DNA of 32,000 bases from Megasphaera elsdenii DSM 20460 (GCF_003010495.1 NZ_CP027570.1:1980001-2012000), one strand, 5' to 3'; shown: positions 1,715 to 20,614, numbered from the stretch's first letter. The notes: a model not told the origin generated them from the sequence alone. Numbers and translations: made by a program.

Positions 1715-3694
1715 ATGGACATCCAAAACATCATCATTCAGAAAATAGATTTACCACAGTTCATCAAAGATTACGCTCATGTGGAACTTGTACGCAAAGG
1801 GAATGGCTGGCGGTGTAAATGCCCCATCCATGAGAACTCTGTCAATCCAGAGGCTATGTATGTTGACGACCGTGGCGGTTACTACTGCTTCGCCTGCAAC
1901 TCGGGAGGGAATGTCATCAACTTCCTTTCTGATTACGAGCATATCAGCTACAGTGCCGCCACAGAACGTCTTGCCTCTATGCTGAATATCAACCTCAAAG
2001 ATGACGCCGAGTACCAGGACCAGAAACGGTTGGAGGATAAATTCAACGGCTATAAGAAGAGAGGACTGGCTGGGGTAGATAATGTAAAACAGTATTTGAC
2101 GGAGAAGAGAGGGTTCACCGAGGAAACCATCCAAACGTTCGAGCTGGGTATGTGGGACGGGAAAATGACAATCCCGTTACTGGATGCCAATGGACGGACG
2201 GTAGGCATGGCAGTACGGCAGTTCGACGCCAAGCCGAAGTACATGAACAGCCGTAACAATATCCTCTATGATAAGTCTGAATTCCTCTTTGGCCTCGATA
2301 AGGCACGTCGCCTTATAAAGAATACCGTCTACGTCGTAGAAGGCTATATGGACGCAATCAGTGGCTATCAAATGGGTATTCCTACGGTAGCCTATTGCTC
2401 CAATGAGCTTCACCGTGACCAGATCCGGATGCTGAACAGTTACCTCCGCAGGGATACGACGGTTGTCATCTGCCCGGACAATGATGAAGCTGGTAAGAAA
2501 CGGATTCCGAGGGTCCGCGATTACTTCAAAGCTATTTCTCCTTCCCGTCAGGTGCGAGTCGTCCTTATGCCTGACGGCTACAAGGATATGAACGACCTTT
2601 TATTAGCCGGTATTGACGCTCAGACGCTTCCAACAGAACATATCGATAAATATGTCGCAAGACTTATTATCGAGGCTTGTAAGACCATTGAGGAAGAATA
2701 TCAGAGAGCAGAAGAGTATCTGAAGACTGTCAAATCGGAAATGATTCGTCTTGATATCATTAAATACCTCGCAGAGCGCTGGAACAAGGATGTAGAAGAC
2801 TTAAAGAAGTATTTCAACACAGTCGGGGAAGACAGCAACGACATCTTGAGTGAAGCCTCTGACATTACCGGATGTATCAACGACCTCAGAAAGATTTATT
2901 CCATCGGAGGGTACAAGACACACTTCCAGCAGATTGATAACTGCATCCGGAAAGTAGAGAAGAAACAGGTTGTGGTTATCGGGGCTTACAGTGGTGTGGG
3001 CAAAACTGATTTCGCTATCGAGTATATGCTACGGGCTATTTGTCAGGATAATATGAGAGTAGCGTTCTTTTCCCTAGAAATGCCGAAAGGTAAGCTTATC
3101 GAACGTTGTTTGGCGAAACTCATCAAATGTTCTACTCCAGAAGTAGAGGGGTACATTGCCAGCAATGACACAGCTGTACAGAAGGTCATTGCGAAGCTCC
3201 AGAACCGCCTTGTCGTATTCGATGGCAACGATTACTCCATGGGTGATATTCAGAAGCGTATAGAACTTGTCAACACGAAGAATATCCTAGGTGGCCCTAT
3301 TGATATGGTGTTCGTCGACTACTTTGGGTATATGAAAGGAACTTCTGAGTTCGAGGGAGCCTCTGCGGCGGCCACGAAGATGAAGGCGGTAGCTAAGGAG
3401 AACGACCTCATCTTTGTTATGTTGAGCCAGCTGAACCGAGGCGGTAATCCTTATGGAGAACCGAACATGCAACAGCTAAAACTGACCGGTGACTTGGAGG
3501 CTTCGGCAGATGTTATTATGCTCTTGTGGAGACCAGGGAAAGACCCTAACTTATCCCTCGAAGAGAAAGACCAGTTGGAGAACGTAACCCGTATCAAGAT
3601 TGACAAAACTCGTGATGGGATGTATGGGAATCCGGTATCTGAGTATTACTACAACAAGGCTACATCCCGTTTGGAAGAGAAATATCTGGAGTAG
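1715..3694 (+). CDS. bifunctional DNA primase / DnaB-like replicative helicase (T7 gp4-like)
   Basis: CHC2 zinc finger (CKCPIHE...YYCFACNSGGNVINF). TOPRIM motifs (VVEGYMDA, CPDNDEAGKK). Walker A GAYSGVGKTDF, Walker B MVFVDYFGYM and the DnaB-type SQLNR motif. Confidence 0.9.
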   Translation: MDIQNIIIQKIDLPQFIKDYAHVELVRKGNGWRCKCPIHENSVNPEAMYVDDRGGYYCFACNSGGNVINFLSDYEHISYSAATERLASMLNINLKDDAEYQDQKRLEDKFNGYKKRGLAGVDNVKQYLTEKRGFTEETIQTFELGMWDGKMTIPLLDANGRTVGMAVRQFDAKPKYMNSRNNILYDKSEFLFGLDKARRLIKNTVYVVEGYMDAISGYQMGIPTVAYCSNELHRDQIRMLNSYLRRDTTVVICPDNDEAGKKRIPRVRDYFKAISPSRQVRVVLMPDGYKDMNDLLLAGIDAQTLPTEHIDKYVARLIIEACKTIEEEYQRAEEYLKTVKSEMIRLDIIKYLAERWNKDVEDLKKYFNTVGEDSNDILSEASDITGCINDLRKIYSIGGYKTHFQQIDNCIRKVEKKQVVVIGAYSGVGKTDFAIEYMLRAICQDNMRVAFFSLEMPKGKLIERCLAKLIKCSTPEVEGYIASNDTAVQKVIAKLQNRLVVFDGNDYSMGDIQKRIELVNTKNILGGPIDMVFVDYFGYMKGTSEFEGASAAATKMKAVAKENDLIFVMLSQLNRGGNPYGEPNMQQLKLTGDLEASADVIMLLWRPGKDPNLSLEEKDQLENVTRIKIDKTRDGMYGNPVSEYYYNKATSRLEEKYLE

Positions 3695-3697
3695 TGC

Positions 3698-3726
3698 TTG
3701 ACAAAATACTCACTTAGAGTTATAAT
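3698..3726 (+). promoter_or_regulatory. consensus sigma-70/sigma-A type promoter
   Basis: TTGACA (3698-3703), a 17-nt spacer and TATAAT (3721-3726), all read directly. The 15-mer atactcacttaRagt from the spacer recurs at 3799-3813 in a degenerate second unit (CTTACA...AATAAA). Confidence 0.6.
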
Positions 3727-4097
3727 AAATACGTAAGGTGAGGCAAGGGAGTTTCCGAACAACAGCTCCGAGGAGGCTCCCAAAAATTTTATCTTACAAT
3801 ACTCACTTAAAGTAATAAAAAACAAAGGAGAGATAAAATGCCCTACGATTCTTACAAATGCCCAGATGGGGGCGTTATAAAAATTGAAGATTGTTTGAAG
3901 CAGTGTAGGCTAGTCGGGAAGATAAATCCCGTGACTGGGATGCTCTATGTACCGTGTGGCAGATGCTTGTCAGCCCCTACGTTACGGAAGATAGCCGAAC
4001 AGAGGGAGTGGACGGGTAAACCTTCTACAACTCAGTGCCTCAGAGGTATGGTCCTATGTCAAGATTTCGGACAAATTAAATTGAGGTTTTTCGTTTC

Positions 4098-5012
4098 TTA
4101 GATTCCCAGACGCATATTATGTTTCTGGAAATCAGCATACAGCTTTTCATAGTCATCCGGTGACATGTAGTTGCAATGGCTATGAATGCGTACGGTGTTG
4201 TAAAAGGTATTGATGTATTCAAACACCAACAAGTACGCTTGCTGATAATTTTGAATCTTGAAGCGATTGAGCCATTCCCGTTTAATCAGGGAGTGGAAGG
4301 ATTCGATGCAGGCATTGTCCCATGGATAGCCTTTCTTCGAATAGCTGCGGCGCATTTGGGATGTCTCCCGAATATATGCCTGCGAAACATACTGGCAGCC
4401 ACGGTCCGAATGGATAACCAACAGCTGTCCGGGTTTCCGGCATTGTTTGGCTTCCTGCAGCATCTTGACGATGCCGGCGACGTCCAGATTACGGGCCAGA
4501 TTCCAGGCGATGATTTTCCTGGAGAACAAATCCATAATGCTTTCCAAATAGACGAAACCTTCAGCTGTCCAGATATAGGTGATGTCGCTGCACCATACTT
4601 GATCCGGTTCTTCAGGATTGAAGCATTCCTGAAGGATATTCACCAGCGCCACGTCAAAGTCACTGTTACGGGTCGTTACGGTGTAATGCTTTACCCAGCA
4701 GGCCTGAATGCCCATTTGCCGCATGTATACGCCAACTGTGCGTTCAGAGATACTGTCCCCGTTCTGCTGCATAACTTGGGCAATCTTCGGGGCTCCGTAA
4801 ATCTGCTTGGAATCGTCGTAGATAGTTTGAATCTTTTTCTTCATCTCCTTGCGGTGCTGGGCCTGTTTCGATGGTTTGCGCGCCGCCCAGTCATAATATC
4901 CTGAAGAAGAAACGTCGAGTTCAGAAAGCACTCCGGACACCGAAAAACGACGTTCTGCCTGATGGGCATTTTCGGCTTCTTCCTGGACACTGCGATAGAT
5001 GGCAATGGTCAT
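4098..5012 (-). CDS. IS3-family transposase OrfB (DDE integrase core), probably made as an OrfAB fusion by -1 frameshifting
   Basis: DDE motifs WCSDITY, HSDRGCQY and DNACIESFH, with D-35-E spacing counted by hand. The orfB frame is open back through the A7G slippery site. Confidence 0.9.
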   Translation of the reverse strand: MTIAIYRSVQEEAENAHQAERRFSVSGVLSELDVSSSGYYDWAARKPSKQAQHRKEMKKKIQTIYDDSKQIYGAPKIAQVMQQNGDSISERTVGVYMRQMGIQACWVKHYTVTTRNSDFDVALVNILQECFNPEEPDQVWCSDITYIWTAEGFVYLESIMDLFSRKIIAWNLARNLDVAGIVKMLQEAKQCRKPGQLLVIHSDRGCQYVSQAYIRETSQMRRSYSKKGYPWDNACIESFHSLIKREWLNRFKIQNYQQAYLLVFEYINTFYNTVRIHSHCNYMSPDDYEKLYADFQKHNMRLGI

Positions 5013-5290
5013 TTGTCCAGAATGCTGATAGCTTTTTTTAGGACATTCAACGCATCCTTCGCATCCCGCAGTTCACGCTGCAGACGGGCGATTTCCTTAG
5101 CTTCATCCGAAGCATAGTTGCCGGAACCACGATAAGGCATTTCGCCATTGTCCTTCAGCTGCTTTTGCCAACGGGACAAGGTTTGTGGAGCAATACCTAG
5201 ATTCGTAGCACAGCCAACCAAGCCGAGTTCCCGATGTTCATGATAATATTTAACTGCGTTGATTTTGAATTCTTTGTTGAATTTTGCCAT
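5009..5290 (-). CDS. IS3-family transposase OrfA (HTH)
   Basis: 93-aa ORF with an HTH (GIAPQTLSRWQKQ) and a leucine-zipper-like C-terminus. AAGGAGG lies upstream of the ATG. Confidence 0.9.
   Translation of the reverse strand: MAKFNKEFKINAVKYYHEHRELGLVGCATNLGIAPQTLSRWQKQLKDNGEMPYRGSGNYASDEAKEIARLQRELRDAKDALNVLKKAISILDK
5032..5039 (-). promoter_or_regulatory. programmed -1 ribosomal frameshift site (A AAA AAA G) of the IS3 transposase
   Basis: The - strand reads cta aaa aaa gct near the orfA end. Slipping by -1 gives KKSYQHSGQMTIAIY, which joins the orfB frame with no stop. Confidence 0.7.
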
Positions 5291-6047
5291 ACTGAGGCCT
5301 CCTTAGTTAATCCTATTGTACCACCATTAGGAACCTCAGTTTGACTTGTCCTATTTATATGCTAACACCAGTACTAGGGAAGCCTACCTTATGCTAACTC
5401 ATGATTACGCTATAGACCCAAAGAGCATGATGTTTGCCCTGTTGGGGACCCAGACCCACGCCAACCTAGAACATGGTATGGAAGAGGGGGATTTAGGAGA
5501 ACAGAGATTGGATGACGGAGTATCTACTGGGGCTTTCGACTTCTACTCTCCGGAAAACGGGGGACTCTATTCGACTACAAAACGTATGGGTCATATGTAG
5601 CCGCTAAGACAATGGGAATGGGGACTCAAAAGGTTTTAGTGGGCCATTATAAAAACGGCAAACCGAGGTACAGAACAATCATCACATATGGAAATGCGAA
5701 GCATATGTTTGACTTAGCCGTACAAATGAATGACTACCGTATGAAAATAGAGAACATCCTCCACAAGCCAGTAGCGAATATGGTTTGTGAAATAATCGTC
5801 AGGGATGGCAATACCTACATGGCCACAAGCCGTGGAGTAACAGAAAATGCATATCTGGTTCCGGTTGGTAAGATTTCGGACCGTTGGATGAAACGATATA
5901 TGGAGAAAAAGGCTGGGGATTTAATAAAAGCCTTGGAAACTAAGACGCTCCCTCCACCTTGTAAAACAAGGGAATGTTGGGGTGGAAATAAATGTGAAAA
6001 GTTTTGCGCGGTAAACAAGTTTTGCGATGCTTATGGAGGTAAATAAT

Positions 6048-11332: not shown

Positions 11333-11576
11333 GTTCTATATTGACAACTGTTTCCATTGCAATCGAATCAGCGGCACATTCGCAAAGCTGGCTGAAAAGT
11401 ATAAAAACGAGATTGATTTTGAGAATAAAAGGGTAGAATCCTCCCTAATGGAGAAAAAATACAATCTGCACATTTACCCGACAGTTGTTGTCTATGATGG
11501 CGATAAAGAGATTGACCGGATTGAGGGGGTTATTCCACCGGAAGTATTAAAAGATTTTGTTGAGGAGGCTCTTTGA
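11313..11576 (+). CDS. thioredoxin/glutaredoxin-like redox protein
   Basis: CxxC motif (DNCFHCN) plus a cis-Pro-like IYPTVVVY. 87 aa. The ATG at 11313 follows GGAG. Confidence 0.65.
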   Translation: MKKKICKFYIDNCFHCNRISGTFAKLAEKYKNEIDFENKRVESSLMEKKYNLHIYPTVVVYDGDKEIDRIEGVIPPEVLKDFVEEAL

Positions 11577-12187
11577 TGACAAATAAAAAATCGTTCTTTA
11601 ACTATCTTACACCGGAACAGATTCAGAAAAAGGTAGATTTCATTAATTTTTATATCGGGGCCACCAATAACGCATCGGCTTCCTTGGTAGACCCTAACTC
11701 CAATGTCTCTGAAAAGAATATGGGTACACTCAAGGAAGAGATGTATAAATTCGAGAACATCCAAGTCAGCCGCAAAATCATCAAAGACAAAATCACGGAA
11801 ATGTTTGGAGATGATTTAGCCGACCAGTACGAGGAAGATATTGAAAGCCATCTTCTGTATTGCCATGATGAAACATTGGCCGCTTTTCTCCCTTATTGCG
11901 CTTCTGTCACGATGTATCCATTTTTGTTGAATGGGACGAAATGTTTGGGTGGTACAAGTAAAGCACCGAAGAATCTCCAATCTTTCTGCGGCTCGTTTGT
12001 TAATCTGGTGTACCAGCTGGCTACGAACTGGGCTGGAGCAACGGCGACCGTAGAATTCCTTATGTATTTTGACTATTTTGCCCGGAAACAGTATGGGGAC
12101 AACTACCTTTCTGTAGCTAGAGACCGCATTGCCCAAGAGTTGCAAGGTGTTGTCTACGCTCTTAACCAACCAGCGGCGGCACGTGGT
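11576..12187 (+). CDS. nrdD: anaerobic ribonucleoside-triphosphate reductase NrdD, exon 1
   Basis: The ATG at 11576 lies 7 nt after GAGGAGG. The product ends ...VYALNQPAAARG, which continues as NQSVFWNIS at 12440. T4 and E. coli NrdD have an RGGNQVVFSS / RAGAQVPFSS type motif, as I recall it. Confidence 0.8.
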
Positions 12188-12439
12188 AAGTAATATTGCC
12201 ACTACACATCTAATCGTTTATCAGCGAAGTCGTTGATTATTCAACGGCTGTCGGGGAAAGCTAAAGCCATTCAGGTATGCTAATCCCGAGCCAAGCTAAA
12301 CTGAAAGCAGTTTAGAAGGTGTATCGACTATCCCCTGTTGTGGGGGAGTAGGGGAGCTATTGATACGTTCCTCGAAATGGTGTGCTAACATTTGTTAGTA
12401 AGAGATAGTCAGAGCCTACGTGAAAGCGTGGGGTACTCG
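12188..12439 (+). ncRNA. group I intron (252 nt, no ORF) in nrdD
   Basis: The 5' exon ends in U (12187). A 5-bp P1 pairs 12183-12187 (GUGGU) with 12198-12202 (GCCAC), with a G.U wobble at the splice site. The last intron nucleotide is G (12439). Internal hairpins include ctaaactg/cagtttag and a GAAA tetraloop stem at 12415-12433. Splicing restores the NrdD frame. Confidence 0.7.
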
Positions 12440-14173
12440 AATCAATCGGTGTTTTGGAATATCTCTGTGTTCGATAAATATTACTTCGATAGTATCTTCG
12501 GTGGTTTCCGTTTCCCCGATGGCACTCAGCCAGATTACGATAGTTTGAGCCGGTTACAGAAATTCTTTATGGAATGGTTCCGAAAAGAGCGAAAGAAAGA
12601 ACTCCTCACTTATCCGGTACTTACTGCCGCTGTATTACTGGACGAGGACAAGAAACCGAAAGATGGGGATTTCGCGTGGTTCCTTGCCGAGGAAATGTCT
12701 AAAGGATTGTCCTTCTTCATCTATGAATCTCAGAGTGCAGACTCTCTTGCGTCGTGCTGTTTTGACGCTAATCAACGAGTATTAGTACGTAACGAAGATG
12801 GCGTTAAACTTATCCGAATTGGTGATTTTAAACCAATGAGCAATTTAACTATATTCTTCGATGGGAGTTGGGTAAAAGGTAGTTTTGTGAAAGCAACTCC
12901 TACCGATAAAATGTATCGAATTGTAACGTCCAATAAAAAAGAAGTTTTTTGCACATCTAATCACATTTTCCCAACGATGGATGGAGATAAAAGGGCAGAT
13001 GAAATTACTACTGACGACTGGCTTATGTTCAACGATAGAGCTTATAAAGAAGGCAGTGGGGAGTATAAAGATGGATTCCTTATTGGAATGTATTTGGGAG
13101 ACGGTTCTATTTACGAACGGGAAAAATGTAATTCTGTCGAAGTTACCCTCTCACTGAATGAGGATAAGGTTAAGAAATGTATTGAATACCTACCCGGTTG
13201 GCATTTATACAGCTCTAAAAATAACGTTATATTTGCCAAGACAACTGACAAGAACATTGCTGAATTTATTAAATACTGGGTTAAGGGAAGTAGATGCAAC
13301 ACCAAAGAGCTTAATATGGATGTTTGTAATAAAAGCTTAGATTTTCGTCGGGGTATTCTTGATGGATTTTACGCAACCGACGGAGGAAATAGCAACAGAA
13401 TTTATACAACATCTAAAAAACTAGCAGAACAAATGGAAGCTATGCTTACCACAATGGGTATCCAGACTATCTTGGATGTAAGCGATAGGACTAACGAAAA
13501 GGTTGTCGTTCGCGGGGAAGAGTTTACTCGCAATTTCCCTTTGTATTGCATCCGTTGGTATGAACCTAAAAATAAACGCTCTATGGGTGATGTATATAAA
13601 ATAACAATTAACGGAACTTTCTTTAAAGTATCCGAGGTTCAGGAAATAACGAACTACGATGAACCTGTATATTGCTTTAATATGGCAGATGGCAAGGAAC
13701 CATATTTCACATTGGCTAATGGTATTCAGACGCATAACTGTCGACTCCGCAACGAACTGGCCGACAACACATTTTCCTATACGTTAGGCGCTGGTGGTGT
13801 ATCTACTGGTTCTTTCCGAGTTATTACCATCAACATGAACCGATATGTTCAGCAGTATGAAAGTAAGTTGCCATTTGGTGATTTGATTAGTCGTATCCAT
13901 AAATACCTCGCCGCTCATCGAGCTGTAATCAAACATTACATCGAGCTGGGTATGTTACCGGCTTATACGGCGCAGTTCATTAACTTTGATACACAGTTCG
14001 GGACTATTGGTATCAACGGTATGTTGGAAGCTATGGAATATAAAGGCTTCTCCCCGACAGTAGATAAAGAAACATATCAGCAAGCAGTATCCAAATACCT
14101 TAAAGCGATTTACGACCTCAATAAGGCGGACATGGTTGTATATGGGTTCCGGTTTAACACCGAGTTCGTGCCT
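12440..14173 (+). CDS. nrdD: NrdD exon 2 (contains an in-frame intein at 12758..13738); the gene then breaks off at a second intron
   Basis: NQSVFWNISVFD... SLASC-[intein]-CRLRNELADNTFSYTLGAGGVSTGS ... FRFNTEFVP. The annotated ORF tail KMRGHIAA* is intron read-through. Confidence 0.8.
12758..13738 (+). mobile_element. intein (327 aa) with LAGLIDADG homing endonuclease domain, inserted in the NrdD SCCRL motif
   Basis: Block A CFDANQRVLV, block B CTSNHIF. LAGLIDADG motifs GFLIGMYLGDGSI and RRGILDGFYATDGG. C-terminal ...IQTHN is followed by a +1 Cys. Removing the intein gives SLASC-CRLRN. Confidence 0.85.
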
Positions 14174-14566
14174 AAAATGCGTGGGCACATAGCGGCATAA
14201 TACATAAACCGCTATAAGAAAACTCCTTTTAATTGACTTGAAGTCCCAGAAGTGGGTAACAAGGCGCAAGCGTAATGGTAGCGTGAACGACTAAATAAAG
14301 GAGGGCCACTTCGGTGGTTGTGCGATAGTCTGAACCGACGATATAACAAAATGAAACGTCGGAGTCGTGGTCAAGTGTAAAGACACTTTTGGAAGAACCA
14401 CGACCGCCTATAAACCTTACCCTCCGGGAAGGAGGGCTTATGAAAAAATGTTGTTTTTGTGGTGTTACTGAAGAAAATGCAAGAGTAGAAAAGTATCATG
14501 GAAAATACTTTTGTCACAAACACTACATACAATACATGAGGCATGGTAAATGCTTCGATAGAACTA
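14174..14566 (+). mobile_element. 5' part of a second group I intron in nrdD carrying an HNH-type homing endonuclease gene; cut off by IS copy 2
   Basis: The exon ends in U (14173). A 6-bp P1 pairs 14168-14173 (GUGCCU) with 14183-14188 (GGGCAC), with a G.U wobble. Stems include atagcgg/ccgctat, a gccac-UUCG-gtggt hairpin, cgacg/cgtcg and gtcgtggt/accacgac. The NrdD frame stops making sense after NTEFVP. Confidence 0.65.
14440..14566 (+). pseudogene. N-terminal 42 codons of an intron-encoded HNH/zinc-ribbon homing endonuclease, truncated by the IS
   Basis: MKKCCFCGVTEENARVEKYHGKYFCHKHYIQYMRHGKCFDRT carries the C..C...C.KHY.....G repeat typical of phage HNH endonuclease N-termini. Its GGAGGG RBS (14431-14436) pairs with CCCTCC (14420-14425). 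Confidence 0.55.
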
Positions 14567-14615
14567 TGGTCCTATGTCAAGATTTCGGACAAATTAAATT
14601 GAGGTTTTTCGTTTC

Positions 14616-15530
14616 TTAGATTCCCAGACGCATATTATGTTTCTGGAAATCAGCATACAGCTTTTCATAGTCATCCGGTGACATGTAGTTGCAATGGCTA
14701 TGAATGCGTACGGTGTTGTAAAAGGTATTGATGTATTCAAACACCAACAAGTACGCTTGCTGATAATTTTGAATCTTGAAGCGATTGAGCCATTCCCGTT
14801 TAATCAGGGAGTGGAAGGATTCGATGCAGGCATTGTCCCATGGATAGCCTTTCTTCGAATAGCTGCGGCGCATTTGGGATGTCTCCCGAATATATGCCTG
14901 CGAAACATACTGGCAGCCACGGTCCGAATGGATAACCAACAGCTGTCCGGGTTTCCGGCATTGTTTGGCTTCCTGCAGCATCTTGACGATGCCGGCGACG
15001 TCCAGATTACGGGCCAGATTCCAGGCGATGATTTTCCTGGAGAACAAATCCATAATGCTTTCCAAATAGACGAAACCTTCAGCTGTCCAGATATAGGTGA
15101 TGTCGCTGCACCATACTTGATCCGGTTCTTCAGGATTGAAGCATTCCTGAAGGATATTCACCAGCGCCACGTCAAAGTCACTGTTACGGGTCGTTACGGT
15201 GTAATGCTTTACCCAGCAGGCCTGAATGCCCATTTGCCGCATGTATACGCCAACTGTGCGTTCAGAGATACTGTCCCCGTTCTGCTGCATAACTTGGGCA
15301 ATCTTCGGGGCTCCGTAAATCTGCTTGGAATCGTCGTAGATAGTTTGAATCTTTTTCTTCATCTCCTTGCGGTGCTGGGCCTGTTTCGATGGTTTGCGCG
15401 CCGCCCAGTCATAATATCCTGAAGAAGAAACGTCGAGTTCAGAAAGCACTCCGGACACCGAAAAACGACGTTCTGCCTGATGGGCATTTTCGGCTTCTTC
15501 CTGGACACTGCGATAGATGGCAATGGTCAT
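14616..15530 (-). CDS. IS3-family transposase OrfB (copy 2); A7G frameshift site at 15550-15557
   Basis: Predicted product identical to that of 4098..5012. Confidence 0.9.
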   Translation of the reverse strand: MTIAIYRSVQEEAENAHQAERRFSVSGVLSELDVSSSGYYDWAARKPSKQAQHRKEMKKKIQTIYDDSKQIYGAPKIAQVMQQNGDSISERTVGVYMRQMGIQACWVKHYTVTTRNSDFDVALVNILQECFNPEEPDQVWCSDITYIWTAEGFVYLESIMDLFSRKIIAWNLARNLDVAGIVKMLQEAKQCRKPGQLLVIHSDRGCQYVSQAYIRETSQMRRSYSKKGYPWDNACIESFHSLIKREWLNRFKIQNYQQAYLLVFEYINTFYNTVRIHSHCNYMSPDDYEKLYADFQKHNMRLGI

Positions 15531-15808
15531 TTGTCCAGAATGCTGATAGCTTTTTTTAGGACATTCAACGCATCCTTCGCATCCCGCAGTTCACGCTGCA
15601 GACGGGCGATTTCCTTAGCTTCATCCGAAGCATAGTTGCCGGAACCACGATAAGGCATTTCGCCATTGTCCTTCAGCTGCTTTTGCCAACGGGACAAGGT
15701 TTGTGGAGCAATACCTAGATTCGTAGCACAGCCAACCAAGCCGAGTTCCCGATGTTCATGATAATATTTAACTGCGTTGATTTTGAATTCTTTGTTGAAT
15801 TTTGCCAT
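15527..15808 (-). CDS. IS3-family transposase OrfA (copy 2)
   Basis: Predicted product identical to that of 5009..5290. Confidence 0.9.
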   Translation of the reverse strand: MAKFNKEFKINAVKYYHEHRELGLVGCATNLGIAPQTLSRWQKQLKDNGEMPYRGSGNYASDEAKEIARLQRELRDAKDALNVLKKAISILDK

Positions 15809-15888
15809 ACTGAGGCCTCCTTAGTTAATCCTATTGTACCACCATTAGGAACCTCAGTTTGACTTGTCCTATTTATATGCTAACACCA

Positions 15889-17745
15889 TGGTCTAAGCCA
15901 ATCCCAAAAGCTCCCCAAGCATTAACTGTTAATACCGAGTTCCAAGGGTTGCTTATTTCTTACAGCCCTATTCCCGAAGACTGTATCGGTATCTGTATCT
16001 CTATTAACGGGGAAAAACATTTTACCTCCGATGATTCTTTCCATTACTACTGTGTCATGGGGGATTTTACGGTCAAGGCTGCTTATTATGATTGCTTTGG
16101 GGAGGGAACGTGGACTAAAGAACAAACTGTCAGTCTTGTGACTCTGGTGGACCCGGCTTGGTTAAAGAGGGAAAGTATTACGCTAGAAAAAGTTGACAAG
16201 AGCATACAAACAGCCGTAAAAGATGCTCAGGATAGTGTAACAGGAATCGCGGAGCTTAAAACGACTACAGATTCCATCTCATCTACTGTTTCCTCGAATA
16301 AAGCTGCTCAGGACGCCCAAAACAAGAAGTTTGTTTCTCAGATTTCCCAGACAAGCTCCCAAGTTTCCTCCGTTGTTACAGATTTGTCTAACGCTAAAAC
16401 AGATTTAAGCAATACCAAGGCACAGGTGAACAGTAATTATACAGCCATCCTCCAGAATCAAAACGATATTGCTCTAAGGGTAAAGACTGGAGAGCTTATC
16501 CAGCAAATAAACCTATCGAAAGAGGGGGTTGCGATAAATGGTAGCAAGGTTCATATTACTGGAGAGACTGTGTTTGATAACGGTGTAATCGTATCTTCGT
16601 ACCTTGGTGACAAGCAGATAGTTGGGACCAAGATTGCTGACGGAGCTATTACGACCGGAAAATTGTCGGCAAATAGTGTCACAGCAGGAAAGTTGGCTTC
16701 TAACTCAGTGACGACTGACAAGATTGCGGCGGGAGCTATTAAATCAGATAAACTCGACACAGGAGCGGTTACAGCGGACAAAATCAAGGCTGGGGCTATT
16801 ACTGCTGATAAACTCACTTCCGGTGCCGTAACCGCTGATAAGCTAGCCGCCAATACGATTAATCTGGCAGGAGCTTTAAAGATTGTTGGCGGTAACGTTA
16901 CACTGGACGAAGACGGTATGACAGTCAAAGAAACAAATGGGAGTTCCGTTCTGTTTGGTGAAAATGGTATGTCATTTGTCGATAGCAATGGTCACACGTT
17001 TTCAGGTATTGGGAGATTTTGTACAGGAATCGTGAACGACGGCCAGACTGTTAAATTCGCTAACCCGTGGGACATCACTCCAACCGTCTTTTTATTCCCT
17101 ATAAGACTACAAACTTCGGCTGTTGGGTACACCAATATCAATATGTATCAAGACGTAGAAGCCATTAATGTGTCGGCTAATGGGTTCACCGCAGTTTGTA
17201 AATCGGTTTTGAAAGCTGGTAGTGGCTCTAATATCCCAGTTTCATGGGAATGTCGTGGTAGTAATGAAAACCCAGGCGGCAATGGTAAAAATGAAAGTTA
17301 TAAATATAACATTAACGTCCCAACGTCTGCCACCCATATTTGGATTTCCATAGAAATCTCTGCCTTTTATCAAAGCTATGTTCGGGTAGGCAAAAATGAC
17401 TATCACGCGTTTGTCGCTTGGGACGAAGGGTCTGTTTCTGTTTCGACAAACACTGGTGTAAGTGAAGCCCGTAACAATTGTGTTAATGGATATGATGGGC
17501 AAAGTGCAGGGGAAGATACTTATAGTCACTATAAAAGAGATACCAAGAGTTTTACGTTTGACATGGACCTCTCACATGTTTCAACTGTAACGGTTACATT
17601 TTCGTTTAGCGGGGCATGTGATTCTCGGTCGTATGGAAAAATACTATCATACCGTACTAACCTAAATTCTGATGTCACGGTTTGTAGAGGGACAGCTGGC
17701 TTTATTGCTATTGACCCGAATACAGTTCCTTACACTATTTCATAG
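15889..17745 (+). pseudogene. 5'-truncated tail / minor structural protein (C-terminal about 619 codons)
   Basis: The reading frame enters directly from the IS end. The phage-derived part starts mid-domain (WSKPIPKAPQALTVNTEF...). It then has a coiled-coil-like Ser/Thr/Gln region, seven decapeptide repeats and a C-terminal beta-rich domain. The first 10 codons of ORF 15859..17745 are IS sequence. Confidence 0.7.
16636..16845 (+). repeat. seven tandem 30-nt (decapeptide) repeats inside the tail protein
   Basis: ADGAITTGKL / SANSVTAGKL / ASNSVTTDKI / AAGAIKSDKL / DTGAVTADKI / KAGAITADKL / TSGAVTADKL. Confidence 0.85.
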
Positions 17746-18304: not shown

Positions 18305-20614
18305 GTGAGACAAATAGAAACAATCGAAGTTATTCTCCCTAAAGAGAAGGAGTTAGTTGAACTGAGTACCGGTTTAAAAGGAGAAACCGGGGTTAGTATT
18401 ACAGACTTTGTTCTAAACGAAGATGGGACGACGATAACCACTTTTGATAACGGAGAAAAGAGGGAAGCCAAACTAACCAGCTTTGTTAAGGTAAAAGAGG
18501 AAGCTGATAAAGCTCAGAAGAGTGCAGAGGCAGCTTACACGTCTATGGTGGCGGCGCAGGACTCCGAACGAAAAGCATCCGTCAGTGAGATTAACACCAA
18601 ATCCTCTGAGCAAGCTTCTAAATTAAGTGAAACCAATGCCCGAAAAAGCGAAGAAAGTGCGGCATCATCTGCGGCAACAGCCACTGGGCAAGCCTCTAGT
18701 GCCAGAACTTCTGCGTCTAATGCTTCTGTGAGTGAGGCTAACTCAAAAGCCTCTGAGAAAGCGGCTTCAGTCTCCGCATCCAATGCAAAGGCAAGTGCCG
18801 ATACCGCTTCCACTCAAGCATCAGCCTCGGCCTCTAGTGCGACTAGTGCAAAAAATTCAGCCACGTCTGCTAGTCAATCAGCTTCCAGTGCCTCTTCTAG
18901 TGCCTCCTCCGCAAGCAATAGTGCATCTTCGGCAGCTAGTAGCGCGGCTTCTGCTAGCGATTCAAAAGATAAAGCTTCTGAATATAAGACATCGGCAAGT
19001 GGTAGTGCCACAGCGGCGGCTTCTTCGGCATCTTCTGCTAGCACATCGGCCACAAATGCTAAAGCGGCCATGAACACTGCTAATACAGCGGCATCTTCTG
19101 CAAGCACATCGGCTACGAGTGCAAGTACTTCTGCTAGTAATGCCTCTAAGTCGGAGGTAGCCGCCAAGTCTGCTCAGGCTGAAGCAGAAAAAGCTAGAGA
19201 CGAAGCAAATAGTGCTCTTGCGAAAATCTCTGGTGCCCTCAAATATATGGGGCAGGTAGATAACTATAACGACTTACCTTCCACTGGTAATTCTAAAGGG
19301 GATACTTGGAATGTAGTCAATGCCGACCTCTCGCACCATATCAAAGCCGGAGATAATGTGGCATGGAATGGGACAGAGTGGGATGACTTATCTGGGGTAG
19401 TAGATTTATCGGCTTATGCAGAAAAAACTGACTATCAGAAAGCAATCACTTCGGCCACAGCCAATGGAGCCACGATTACCTTTAATCACAAAGATGGTAC
19501 AACTTCTACAGCTACGGTCAACAATGTGGCTTCTGCCACAGCGGCTACAAATGATGCCAAAGGACAGAAAATTGATACCACTTACGAAAAGATTTCCGAT
19601 GCTTCTAACGTCCACGCATCTTTGCAGAATAGTATTAATACCAAGTTAGATAAAACGGGAACTGCTGTTTCTGCAACAAAGCTAAGTACAGCCAGAACAA
19701 TTCAAATTAACCTTGCAAGCACAACAGCAACCGCTTTTGACGGAAGCGCTAATATTACTCCGGGAGTTACTGGAACATTATCAGTCAGTAATGGCGGTAC
19801 CGGTTCAAATTCATTAGCTAATATTATAGTTGGTAGAGCGACATCTGATGATCATGGCAATAATATTGCTAACACATATCTAAAAAAGGCTTCTGCATTA
19901 GGAAAGAATAATTTAAATACAATTACAGCTGAAGGCATTTATTATCAGAACGGTAACGATGCTTCTAACGTAACGGATTCTAACTACCCATGTAATAGAG
20001 CAGGTTCTTTAATAGTAACTACTAATTATGCTGACGGTGATAGTGGATGCTCTCAAATTTATATTCCATATGATAATAATACTATATATATTAGACATCA
20101 TATGGCAAGAAGTGGTATATGGTCTTCCTGGTCTAATTTAGCGACTACTGACAGTAATGTAAATAGTGCTAATAAATTAGCTACAGCTAGAACGATAAGC
20201 CTAACGGGCAACGCGACTGGTTCTGCTAGTTTTGACGGTAGTGGAGACATTAGTATTAGTACTACTGTTAATGAAAGTAAGCACGCGGCGGCGGCGGATA
20301 TAGCAAAGACGTTGCAGTTAGTAGAAGGCGACAGATCAACGAGTCAGGCTACGTTTAACTGGATTGGAAAGGACGGACAGCCGGCGTGGCTATGGGGCGG
20401 TAACGGCATGAACAATATGTATGTCTACAACCCGTCAAATTTCTACGTCGCGAGAGCTAAAAGTGCGGATACGGCTACGAAAGCTAATCAGGATGCTTCC
20501 GGGAATGTTATCACAGATACCTATGCTAAAAAAACATATGTAGATGAACGTATTGCAGCTCTTGAGGATGCTGTCAACACCTTAAAGAAAGGAGCGACTA
20601 CTACAAATGGCTAA
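18305..20614 (+). CDS. tail fiber protein with long Ser/Ala-rich low-complexity stalk
   Basis: ORF 18239..20614. A GTG at 18305 just after the upstream stop is the likeliest start. Motifs include KGDTWNV...GDNVAWNGTEWDDLSG and two K(L)(S/A)TARTI...FDGS..I repeats. Also LSVSNGGTGS, typical of phage fibers. Confidence 0.8.
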   Translation: MRQIETIEVILPKEKELVELSTGLKGETGVSITDFVLNEDGTTITTFDNGEKREAKLTSFVKVKEEADKAQKSAEAAYTSMVAAQDSERKASVSEINTKSSEQASKLSETNARKSEESAASSAATATGQASSARTSASNASVSEANSKASEKAASVSASNAKASADTASTQASASASSATSAKNSATSASQSASSASSSASSASNSASSAASSAASASDSKDKASEYKTSASGSATAAASSASSASTSATNAKAAMNTANTAASSASTSATSASTSASNASKSEVAAKSAQAEAEKARDEANSALAKISGALKYMGQVDNYNDLPSTGNSKGDTWNVVNADLSHHIKAGDNVAWNGTEWDDLSGVVDLSAYAEKTDYQKAITSATANGATITFNHKDGTTSTATVNNVASATAATNDAKGQKIDTTYEKISDASNVHASLQNSINTKLDKTGTAVSATKLSTARTIQINLASTTATAFDGSANITPGVTGTLSVSNGGTGSNSLANIIVGRATSDDHGNNIANTYLKKASALGKNNLNTITAEGIYYQNGNDASNVTDSNYPCNRAGSLIVTTNYADGDSGCSQIYIPYDNNTIYIRHHMARSGIWSSWSNLATTDSNVNSANKLATARTISLTGNATGSASFDGSGDISISTTVNESKHAAAADIAKTLQLVEGDRSTSQATFNWIGKDGQPAWLWGGNGMNNMYVYNPSNFYVARAKSADTATKANQDASGNVITDTYAKKTYVDERIAALEDAVNTLKKGATTTNG
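18510..19230 (+). repeat. Ser/Ala/Thr-rich low-complexity coding region (GCN/TCN-rich)
   Basis: Runs such as SASSASSSASSASNSASSAASSAASAS. This produces spurious ORFs in other frames and on the opposite strand. Confidence 0.8.

Follow-up and report, generated by a model that had tools for sequence, protein, structure and literature searches.

In the chromosome of Megasphaera elsdenii DSM 20460, an insertion sequence (IS) of the IS3 family marks the place at which an integrated prophage has lost approximately 25-26 kb of DNA. The element, here called IS copy 2, comprises 1,322 bp at positions 14567-15888 of the window, the whole 32,000-nucleotide stretch analysed (GCF_003010495.1, NZ_CP027570.1:1980001-2012000; positions are counted from its first letter), and fuses two truncated phage genes without a target duplication. 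The evidence laid out below shows both the deletion and its anchoring on the IS. Judged from intact relatives, the lost DNA would comprise (i) the 3' two-thirds of a gene encoding an HNH homing endonuclease, (ii) the 3' end of the intron that harbours it, (iii) exon 3 of the phage nrdD gene, (iv) the packaging and head genes, (v) an accessory block, and (vi) the first ~256 codons of a tail gene. The event itself belongs to a class that is already known, the IS-anchored deletion that turns a prophage into a cryptic remnant as part of ordinary prophage decay; what is new is the presence of sequences resembling the IS tips at both deletion end points. The reading favoured here, in which we place about half of our confidence, is a real deletion whose end points lie exactly at the IS termini and were chosen by the transposase at these tip-like sequences.

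The junction and the second copy of the element comprise the following features:

4049-5370, minus strand: IS copy 1, oriented like copy 2, with GTA/GTA at 4046-4048 and 5371-5373
12433-14173, plus strand: nrdD exon 2 with a LAGLIDADG intein (about 12760-13738), ending at position 414 of 562 of the NRDD profile
14174-14566, plus strand: 5' portion of nrdD intron 2, which lacks its 3' end
14440-14566, plus strand: HNH-AP2 homing endonuclease gene, 5' fragment of 42 codons that stops short of the HNH motif
14547-14566, plus strand: left break-point flank, native HNH coding sequence with homology to the relatives L010 and L011
14567-15888, minus strand: IS copy 2, arranged CTA / IS / TGG without target duplication, marking the deletion
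14567-14606, plus strand: orfB-distal terminal inverted repeat (window-left; the right inverted repeat, IRR, in transposase orientation), tip TGGTCC...
14616-15530, minus strand: orfB of IS copy 2, 304 residues, rve/DDE integrase core
15527-15808, minus strand: orfA of IS copy 2, 93 residues, HTH_Tnp_1
15550-15557, minus strand: predicted frameshift site, the A7G slippery motif AAAAAAAG towards the end of orfA
15849-15888, minus strand: orfA-proximal terminal inverted repeat (window-right; the left inverted repeat, IRL, in transposase orientation), tip ...CACCA
15889-15908, plus strand: right break-point flank, native tail-gene sequence TGGTCTAAGC...
15889-17745, plus strand: 3' 70% of the tail protein gene (residues ~257-882 in full-length homologues)

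The two copies are identical at 1322/1322 nucleotides. Their identity runs from 4047 to 5370 and from 14565 to 15888, and the TG...CA ends set the element at 1,322 bp. The termini, TGGTCC...CACCA, belong to imperfect inverted repeats of ~40 nt that share a conserved GGACAA..TGAGGTT core in the alignment of the two ends. As far as its sequence can tell, the element agrees with the IS3 family in every testable respect. The orfB product scores 277 bits against the NCBIfam model NF033516 (IS3 transposase, cut-off 160), orfA matches positions 1-83 of the same model, and Pfam recognizes rve, rve_3, HTH_21, and HTH_Tnp_1 within the IS. The arrangement of the open reading frames (ORFs) is likewise that of the family, with orfA at IS positions 81-362 and orfB at 359-1273 in the -1 frame, overlapping by 4 nt, as are the imperfect inverted repeats, the 5'-TG...CA-3' termini, and the length, which falls within 1.2-1.55 kb. 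An A6G-type slippery site is the usual -1 frameshift signal of IS3-family elements; the motif of copy 2 lies at IS position 332 in transposase orientation, just before orfB, and frameshifting is predicted there.

GTA stands on both sides of copy 1; copy 2 has CTA to its left and TGG to its right, which agree at 0/3 positions. An earlier sequence-only reading of the locus had described these flanks, and they are as it gave them. The left IS boundary is ambiguous by 1-2 nt, since TA closes the left flank of either copy and T probably came next in the native HNH codon. The empty site of copy 1 appears as a single GTA in the near-identical, IS-free relatives L212 and L214, whose alignments overlap by exactly GTA, and likewise in the more distant L005 and L008. 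A transposase look-up listed 10 further full copies, 6 in the same chromosome and 4 in other assemblies, all identical at 1321-1322 of 1,322 positions, and 9 of these 10 display a perfect 3-bp duplication; 4 more full copies on metagenome-derived contigs each have a duplication. Counting copy 1, a perfect short duplication thus accompanies 14 of the 15 other full copies listed (3 bp in at least 13), and the missing duplication at copy 2 is a true exception for this IS. Activity of the element is high: the full copies seen in M. elsdenii assemblies are all identical or one base off. A second copy without duplication, flanked by GAG/AAT, was observed at 2643-3964 of a metagenome contig from JGI (L107).

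On the left side of copy 2, the window leaves the nrdD frame after ...RFNTEFVP at 14173. The intron-less alleles L005, L212, and L214 read through this point as ...RFNTE(F/Y)VP|AEGLG..., their exons joining precisely and in frame, and L010 and L011 leave the frame at the same codon and resume it, after an HNH ORF, with an exon 3 of 151 residues that encodes the C-terminal end of NrdD. The HNH ORF of L010 and L011, located in an intron at the same nrdD position, encodes 199 residues with HNH_3 (residues 118-145) and AP2 domains; the fragment in the window is 65% identical to its first 43 residues and is cut by the IS at codon 42. The nrdD exon 3, with its glycyl-radical end, is absent from the window. 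The call of intron 2 rests on this comparative exon junction and not on a structure model, because Rfam, which returns no match for intron 2 in the window, also fails on the complete copy of L010. At gathering thresholds Rfam finds nothing in the window; intron 1, at 12178-12432 after nrdD exon 1, reaches 35 bits (E 1e-6) against a group I model whose gathering score is 50. An ORF of 59 residues that fuses the HNH fragment to the IS has no record in the protein look-up.

On the right side, the ORF at 15859-17745 starts inside the IS and, from 15889 onwards, aligns with residues 257-882 of an 882-residue protein at 66% identity. Twelve aligned tail relatives are mostly 840-900 residues long and share a strongly conserved N-terminal region of 256 residues that the window lacks; the retained part is labelled tail or tail fibre by PHROGs. 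The closest DNA relatives of the tail gene, L191 and L192 (92% identical), preserve the native sequence ...CTCTCTAAGCCT|TGGTCTAAGCCAATCCC, where the bar denotes the break point. To the right of it, L192 equals the window over all 30 nt shown, and L191 over 26 nt followed by a single mismatch. The apparent starts of the truncated ORF (TTG at 15859, ATG at 15877) both lie inside the IS; the ORF is called from them, and databases therefore hold IS-phage chimeric 'proteins' of 622 and 628 residues. The look-up of a 162-residue ORF returned only one contig, of 1 kb.

The size and content of the missing interval emerge from a reference composed of two loci of the 66-kb viral contig IMGVR_UViG_3300045988_106038, which share an exact 1,989-nt overlap. 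Window position 14173 corresponds to reference position 11677 and window position 15889 to 36938, with ~25.3 kb in between. The interval comprises, in order, (i) the 3' part of nrdD, a 200-residue ORF with further small ORFs, and a small-terminase-like gene; (ii) a minus-strand block of ~10 kb containing an SNF2 helicase and a Rha/ANT antirepressor; and (iii) an intein-bearing large terminase, an SU10-type portal, two ORFs in scaffold position, an SU10-type major capsid protein, adaptors, and the tail gene. The start of the interval past nrdD is shared by L212 and L214 (99.7-99.8% identical to the window in the primase), and the order from terminase to tail by L004, L191, and L192. Thus, the IS termini are the break points, no duplication surrounds them, and the flanks are not adjacent in intact relatives. 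Because the terminase, portal, and capsid genes are gone, the prophage can no longer package DNA or build heads, and nrdD is dead.

Much of this had been anticipated. The sequence-only reading had recognized the left flank as an interrupted HNH gene in an nrdD intron and the right flank as the middle of a tail gene; the first identification is borne out by the HNH_3 and AP2 ORF at the same nrdD position in L010 and L011, and the second by the alignment to residues 257-882 of tail proteins of 860-890 residues. Its list of missing items (the rest of the endonuclease gene, the 3' half of the intron, nrdD exon 3, and the 5' part of the tail gene) is correct as far as it goes but far too short, the packaging and head module and the ~10-kb block being gone as well. 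The comparison with related phages that it proposed returned full-length versions of both cut genes separated by ~25 kb, and the idea that the genes naturally end at the IS is rejected accordingly.

The sequences abutting the IS resemble the IS tips themselves. The right flank TGGTCTAAGC... mirrors the IS tip beside it (TGGTGTTAGC in the inward direction); over a longer stretch, TGGTCTAAGCCAAT matches, as the mirror image of that tip, the inward-read IS end TGGTGTTAGCATAT at 8/10 and 10/14 positions. On the left, the reverse complement of the flank, TAGTTCTATC..., matches the abutting tip TGGTCCTATG... at 7/10 and 12/20 positions. Against a background of all window positions on both strands, scored with the better of the two IS ends, the empirical frequencies are 8.5e-4 for 8/10 on the right and 6e-3 and 2e-3 for 7/10 and 12/20 on the left, and a random pair of sites reaches a sum of at least 15/20 with P ~1.5e-5. 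The similarity occurs only at offset 0, the 46 flanks of other IS copies attain a maximum of 6/10, and on either side the flank consists of native phage coding DNA and not of IS debris. It was the sequence-only reading that prompted the right-flank test, having noticed that the first five nucleotides of that flank, TGGTC, equal those of the IS left end; the match is real and extends further as a mirror of the abutting end. The left-flank test is an independent replication. The accompanying remark, that the arrangement recalls targeting of surrogate ends resembling an inverted repeat, has gained support, since both flanks imitate tips, and the mechanism is one that we infer. Taken together, the matches suggest that the transposase, and not chance, chose the deletion end points.

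When IS3-family elements transpose by copy-out-paste-in, a single 3' end, once cleaved, attacks its own strand immediately beyond the partner end (PMC2909936, PMC7780238). Fused OrfAB raises the rate of adjacent deletions, and IS150 makes adjacent deletions without duplication (PMC11708052); for deletions by IS629, a preprint summarises the proposal that the first strand is transferred in a 'sloppy' manner to something other than the second end (bioRxiv 10.1101/2023.06.07.543989). A host IS3-family element has invaded the prophage at least twice, copy 1 representing a plain insertion. At copy 2, along the lines just described, each 3' end of the IS would have become linked, intramolecularly, to host DNA that imitates a tip, tip to tip as in an IS circle junction; a one-ended 'adjacent deletion' strand transfer, once or twice, or an insertion with deletion could have brought this about. 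The tip-like sequence would replace the partner end, so that the attacked strand becomes continuous without the interval, and replication would then fix the deleted strand. The presence of tip-like sequences at both ends could reflect either two events, starting from an IS first located inside the interval, or a single concerted event. Copy 2 may thereby represent a natural footprint of end-mimic targeting, both ends having been joined, with no spacer and no duplication, to IS-tip-like host sequences 25 kb apart by one transposase-catalysed pathway; our confidence in this specific proposal falls a little short of even. So far, such a pathway has been inferred mainly from plasmid assays in E. 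coli with IS911 and IS629.

A number of observations weigh against the choice of the end points by the transposase. The mimicry is limited to the outer ~10-20 nt, with ~28-35% identity beyond position 14-20, the left pseudo-tip begins with TA and not TG, and the mimicry statistics are partly post hoc. The circle junctions of IS3-family elements usually contain a 3-nt spacer, and here the join is at 0 nt. In addition, the IS911 transposase binds the subterminal region (PMC2909936), which is not mimicked here, and copy-out-paste-in alone is not expected to delete donor DNA (bioRxiv 10.1101/2023.06.07.543989). The main rival, to which we give about a third of our confidence, is homologous recombination: a pair of ordinary insertions in direct orientation, in the HNH gene (duplication CTA) and in the tail gene (duplication TGG), would have undergone a RecA-type crossover that excised the interval with one IS and left a hybrid copy, the tip-like flanks being due to chance or to a weak target preference. 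This route is common and needs nothing special, it suits a multi-copy and highly active IS with at least eight identical copies in this chromosome, and the prophage has been hit repeatedly, copy 1 lying only 10.5 kb off in the same orientation. Crossover between identical IS copies is, moreover, a standard cause of missing duplications (PMC11708052), and the copy of L107 probably arose by such IS-IS recombination, given that its flanks lack tip mimicry. Recombination does not, however, predict tip mimicry, which is confined to both flanks of copy 2 (joint ~1.5e-5) and exceeds anything in the 46 flanks of ordinary insertions. Nor was a single-insertion intermediate found: no contig carries a precursor, be it an IS with its duplication at one of the two sites or this very phage in native form there, in a search of limited power, and exact-pattern scans of viral contigs for the native version of either flank returned nothing. 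It is very improbable, in our judgement, that the deletion came first by an IS-independent break or illegitimate recombination and that an IS circle was then captured without duplication, as in double-strand-break capture (Ngan et al. 2024). De novo, duplication-less IS5 movements at the centre of large deletions have been seen directly (PMC11708052), and yet capture does not predict tip-like sequences at both break points. Ordinary insertion of the IS into an older junction is rejected: a 3-bp duplication would be expected, the flanks match at 0/3, and the copies are identical, from which copy 2 is young. Microhomology-mediated deletion is likewise rejected, the similarity between flanks and IS ends being inverted, not direct, and the IS end exact.

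The sequence-only reading had left deletion, rearrangement, and misassembly side by side. Deletion is supported by the relatives, the absence of the capsid gene, and the recurring junctions, and the other two are disfavoured. If the sequence were an assembly artefact, which we consider barely credible, the HNH|IS and IS|tail junctions would be real but derived from two IS copies joined through the 1.3-kb repeat, with the intervening DNA dropped or misplaced. At least eight identical 1,322-bp repeats permit such misjoins, and all short-read assemblies break inside the IS, none linking both flanks. At the left junction, the contigs L216 and L217 (from SRR12996186 and SRR12996184) and L215 equal the window at 100% and break off 28-30 nt into the IS; L222 (DRR466868; 11 samples and 18 similar places), L223, and L002 do likewise at the right junction. 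Only the finished assemblies span the whole IS with both flanks, and the linkage of the flanks rests on them, which counts against the deletion reading. On the other hand, the second chromosome-size assembly (2,478,942 bp, 4.2 kb longer) has the same IS-tail fusion, its protein starting MLTPWS (four IS codons, then tail), all 4 of the 4 distinct places shown for the exact 129-residue neighbour protein (24 contigs read) carry the truncated tail gene, and the six other listed copies in this chromosome have intact duplications, with no compensating swapped copy seen. A search with the SU10-type capsid protein of the closest structural relative returned 116 homologues. They lie on contigs no longer than 527 kb, and neither the 2.47-Mb chromosome nor the second assembly, of 2.48 Mb, is represented, so that in neither has the block been misplaced. 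The same result speaks against a highly improbable rearrangement in which an IS-mediated inversion or translocation moved a 25-kb block elsewhere, bounded by other IS copies. Many IS copies could have served as recombination partners, those of the chromosome being known only as the copies listed; against this, the six other copies examined each sit among host genes, with matched duplications. Two points temper the absence of the missing genes and likewise weigh against the deletion: the capsid search covers called genes that share 5-residue words with the query, and a word-indexed search for the missing tail N-terminus (conserved 257 residues) gave 1 hit and was insensitive enough to miss known full-length positives, so that its negatives for short queries deserve no trust. 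We nevertheless read the event as a real deletion, and not as a misassembly or relocation, because no capsid gene was found on contigs above 1 Mb and the junctions recur in independent short-read assemblies.

Exact-protein matches place the window in chromosome HE576794.1 (2,474,718 bp; GCA_000283495.2). Upstream of the window lie the host genes topA, an aminotransferase gene (cysteine desulfurase-type on our reading of the Pfam hits), and mnmA, followed by a minus-strand tyrosine integrase, an Xis-like helix-turn-helix gene, Rad52, and a primase-helicase. From this succession of host genes and integrase, the prophage is integrated adjoining mnmA, with the integrase at its left end. It is temperate and podovirus-like, with an SU10-type portal and capsid. 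It belongs to an uncultured lineage: among 50,697 phage records, the best-matching portal shares ~31% identity, the top matches listed being Photobacterium, Pelagibacter, and LUZ24-like Pseudomonas phages, and a megablast of the region against cultured phages gave no match. An attP inside the missing interval is rejected, as the integrase and attL lie at the far left, upstream of the replication genes. A composite transposon formed by copy 1, 9.2 kb, and copy 2 is rejected as well, since the outer flanks, GTA and TGG, differ and relatives are collinear across copy 1. The two copies are direct repeats 10.5 kb apart, and the intervening 9.2 kb, with dUTPase, methyltransferase, thioredoxin, and nrdD, is therefore poised for further recombinational deletion.

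The phage nrdD gene (window 11576-14566) hosts three selfish elements: the group I intron 1, the LAGLIDADG intein, and intron 2 with its HNH-AP2 endonuclease. These vary among near-identical relatives: L212 displays a GIY-YIG ORF at the position of intron 1 and no intein, L214 the intein and no intron 2, and L005 neither intein nor intron 2; intron 2 is present in L010 and L011. Intein-like inserts occur in relatives as well, one in the large terminase (L157, 6039-8495, 818 residues, with Hom_end and LAGLIDADG matches) and one in the portal of L004 (1576-4752), which measures 1,058 residues, compared with 717 elsewhere. The phage group seems unusually rich in homing elements. Elsewhere in the window, a 791-residue tail-fibre-like gene contains five diverged 34-nt repeats at 18690-19143 (spacings 168, 168, 63, and 21 nt), and a 54-nt inverted repeat, 80% complementary with a 159-nt spacer, lies at 891-1157 in the early region, upstream of the primase-helicase gene. 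A giant ORF that follows an SLT transglycosylase gene runs from 26442 past 32000; it comprises 2,698 residues in the record, of which the 1,852 in the window have no PHROG match, and its product may be an internal or ejection protein.

Further assemblies and metagenome contigs contain the IS at 99-100% identity (L106-L120, L197-L211), among them a Blautia metagenome-assembled genome (MAG) at 99.4%, and copies of 89-94% identity are found in Megasphaera MAGs and in one Lachnospiraceae genome assembly. This distribution suggests recent horizontal spread. A megablast of the IS against a plasmid collection gave no match; a scan of genome contigs with the IS end matched 5 contigs, 4 of them labelled MAGs, and the M. 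elsdenii chromosome was not among the matches.

For annotation, the M. elsdenii prophage is to be regarded as defective, without terminase, portal, and capsid genes, and the '628-residue' ORF as an IS-tail fusion and not a native gene. The locus offers a clean natural case of a duplication-less IS3-family copy for which numerous ordinary copies of the element serve as a comparison. If the tip mimicry holds, it would support transposase-directed over RecA-directed large deletions and provide a simple sequence test to tell them apart; if it proves general, the end points of genomic deletions caused by IS3-family elements would be partly predictable from sequence.

Deletions at IS150, both adjacent and by IS-IS recombination, in the E. 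coli long-term evolution experiment, where Cooper and colleagues reportedly described them in 2001, are among the closest counterparts. As in copy 2, an IS3-family element lies at the edge of a multi-kb deletion and the retained copy is unduplicated, whereas ordinary copies are duplicated (Ngan et al. 2024, PMC11708052). The present case differs in its Negativicute host, its prophage target, and in being known without a time series, and the IS150 deletions come without reported tip mimicry. A second parallel is offered by IS911, which is said, in work by Loot and colleagues in 2002 and 2004 and by Rousseau and colleagues in 2008 that PMC2909936 and PMC7986276 cite, to insert next to IS911 ends when OrfAB acts without OrfA. 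In both systems an IS3-family transposase would set an IS end beside a sequence that resembles an IS end. The IS911 targets, however, reportedly were genuine 36-bp inverted repeats with adjoining IS homology and RecG processing, whereas at copy 2 only the outer 10-20 nt are imitated, no adjoining homology exists, the joining point lies at 0 nt, and a deletion results. Copy 2 thus resembles inverted-repeat targeting by IS911 and, judged by the flank sequences, would fall outside its definition, the target not being a full inverted repeat. The 'sloppy' transfer of IS629 (Kusumoto et al. 2011, as summarised in bioRxiv 10.1101/2023.06.07.543989) parallels the proposal for copy 2 in that a cleaved IS end attacks a non-partner site in the same molecule and yields an IS-abutting deletion; according to that summary, the IS629 events took place on plasmids with overproduced OrfAB and IEE protein, unlike the chromosomal copy 2. 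The prophage of M. elsdenii resembles those of E. coli O157 in that a host IS removes essential morphogenesis genes, and differs from them in belonging to an SU10-type, podovirus-like lineage whose nearest cultured relatives share ~30% portal identity. Decay driven by IS elements into cryptic prophages is a familiar course, exemplified by the IS629-rich prophages of E. coli O157 (background in PMC5359411).

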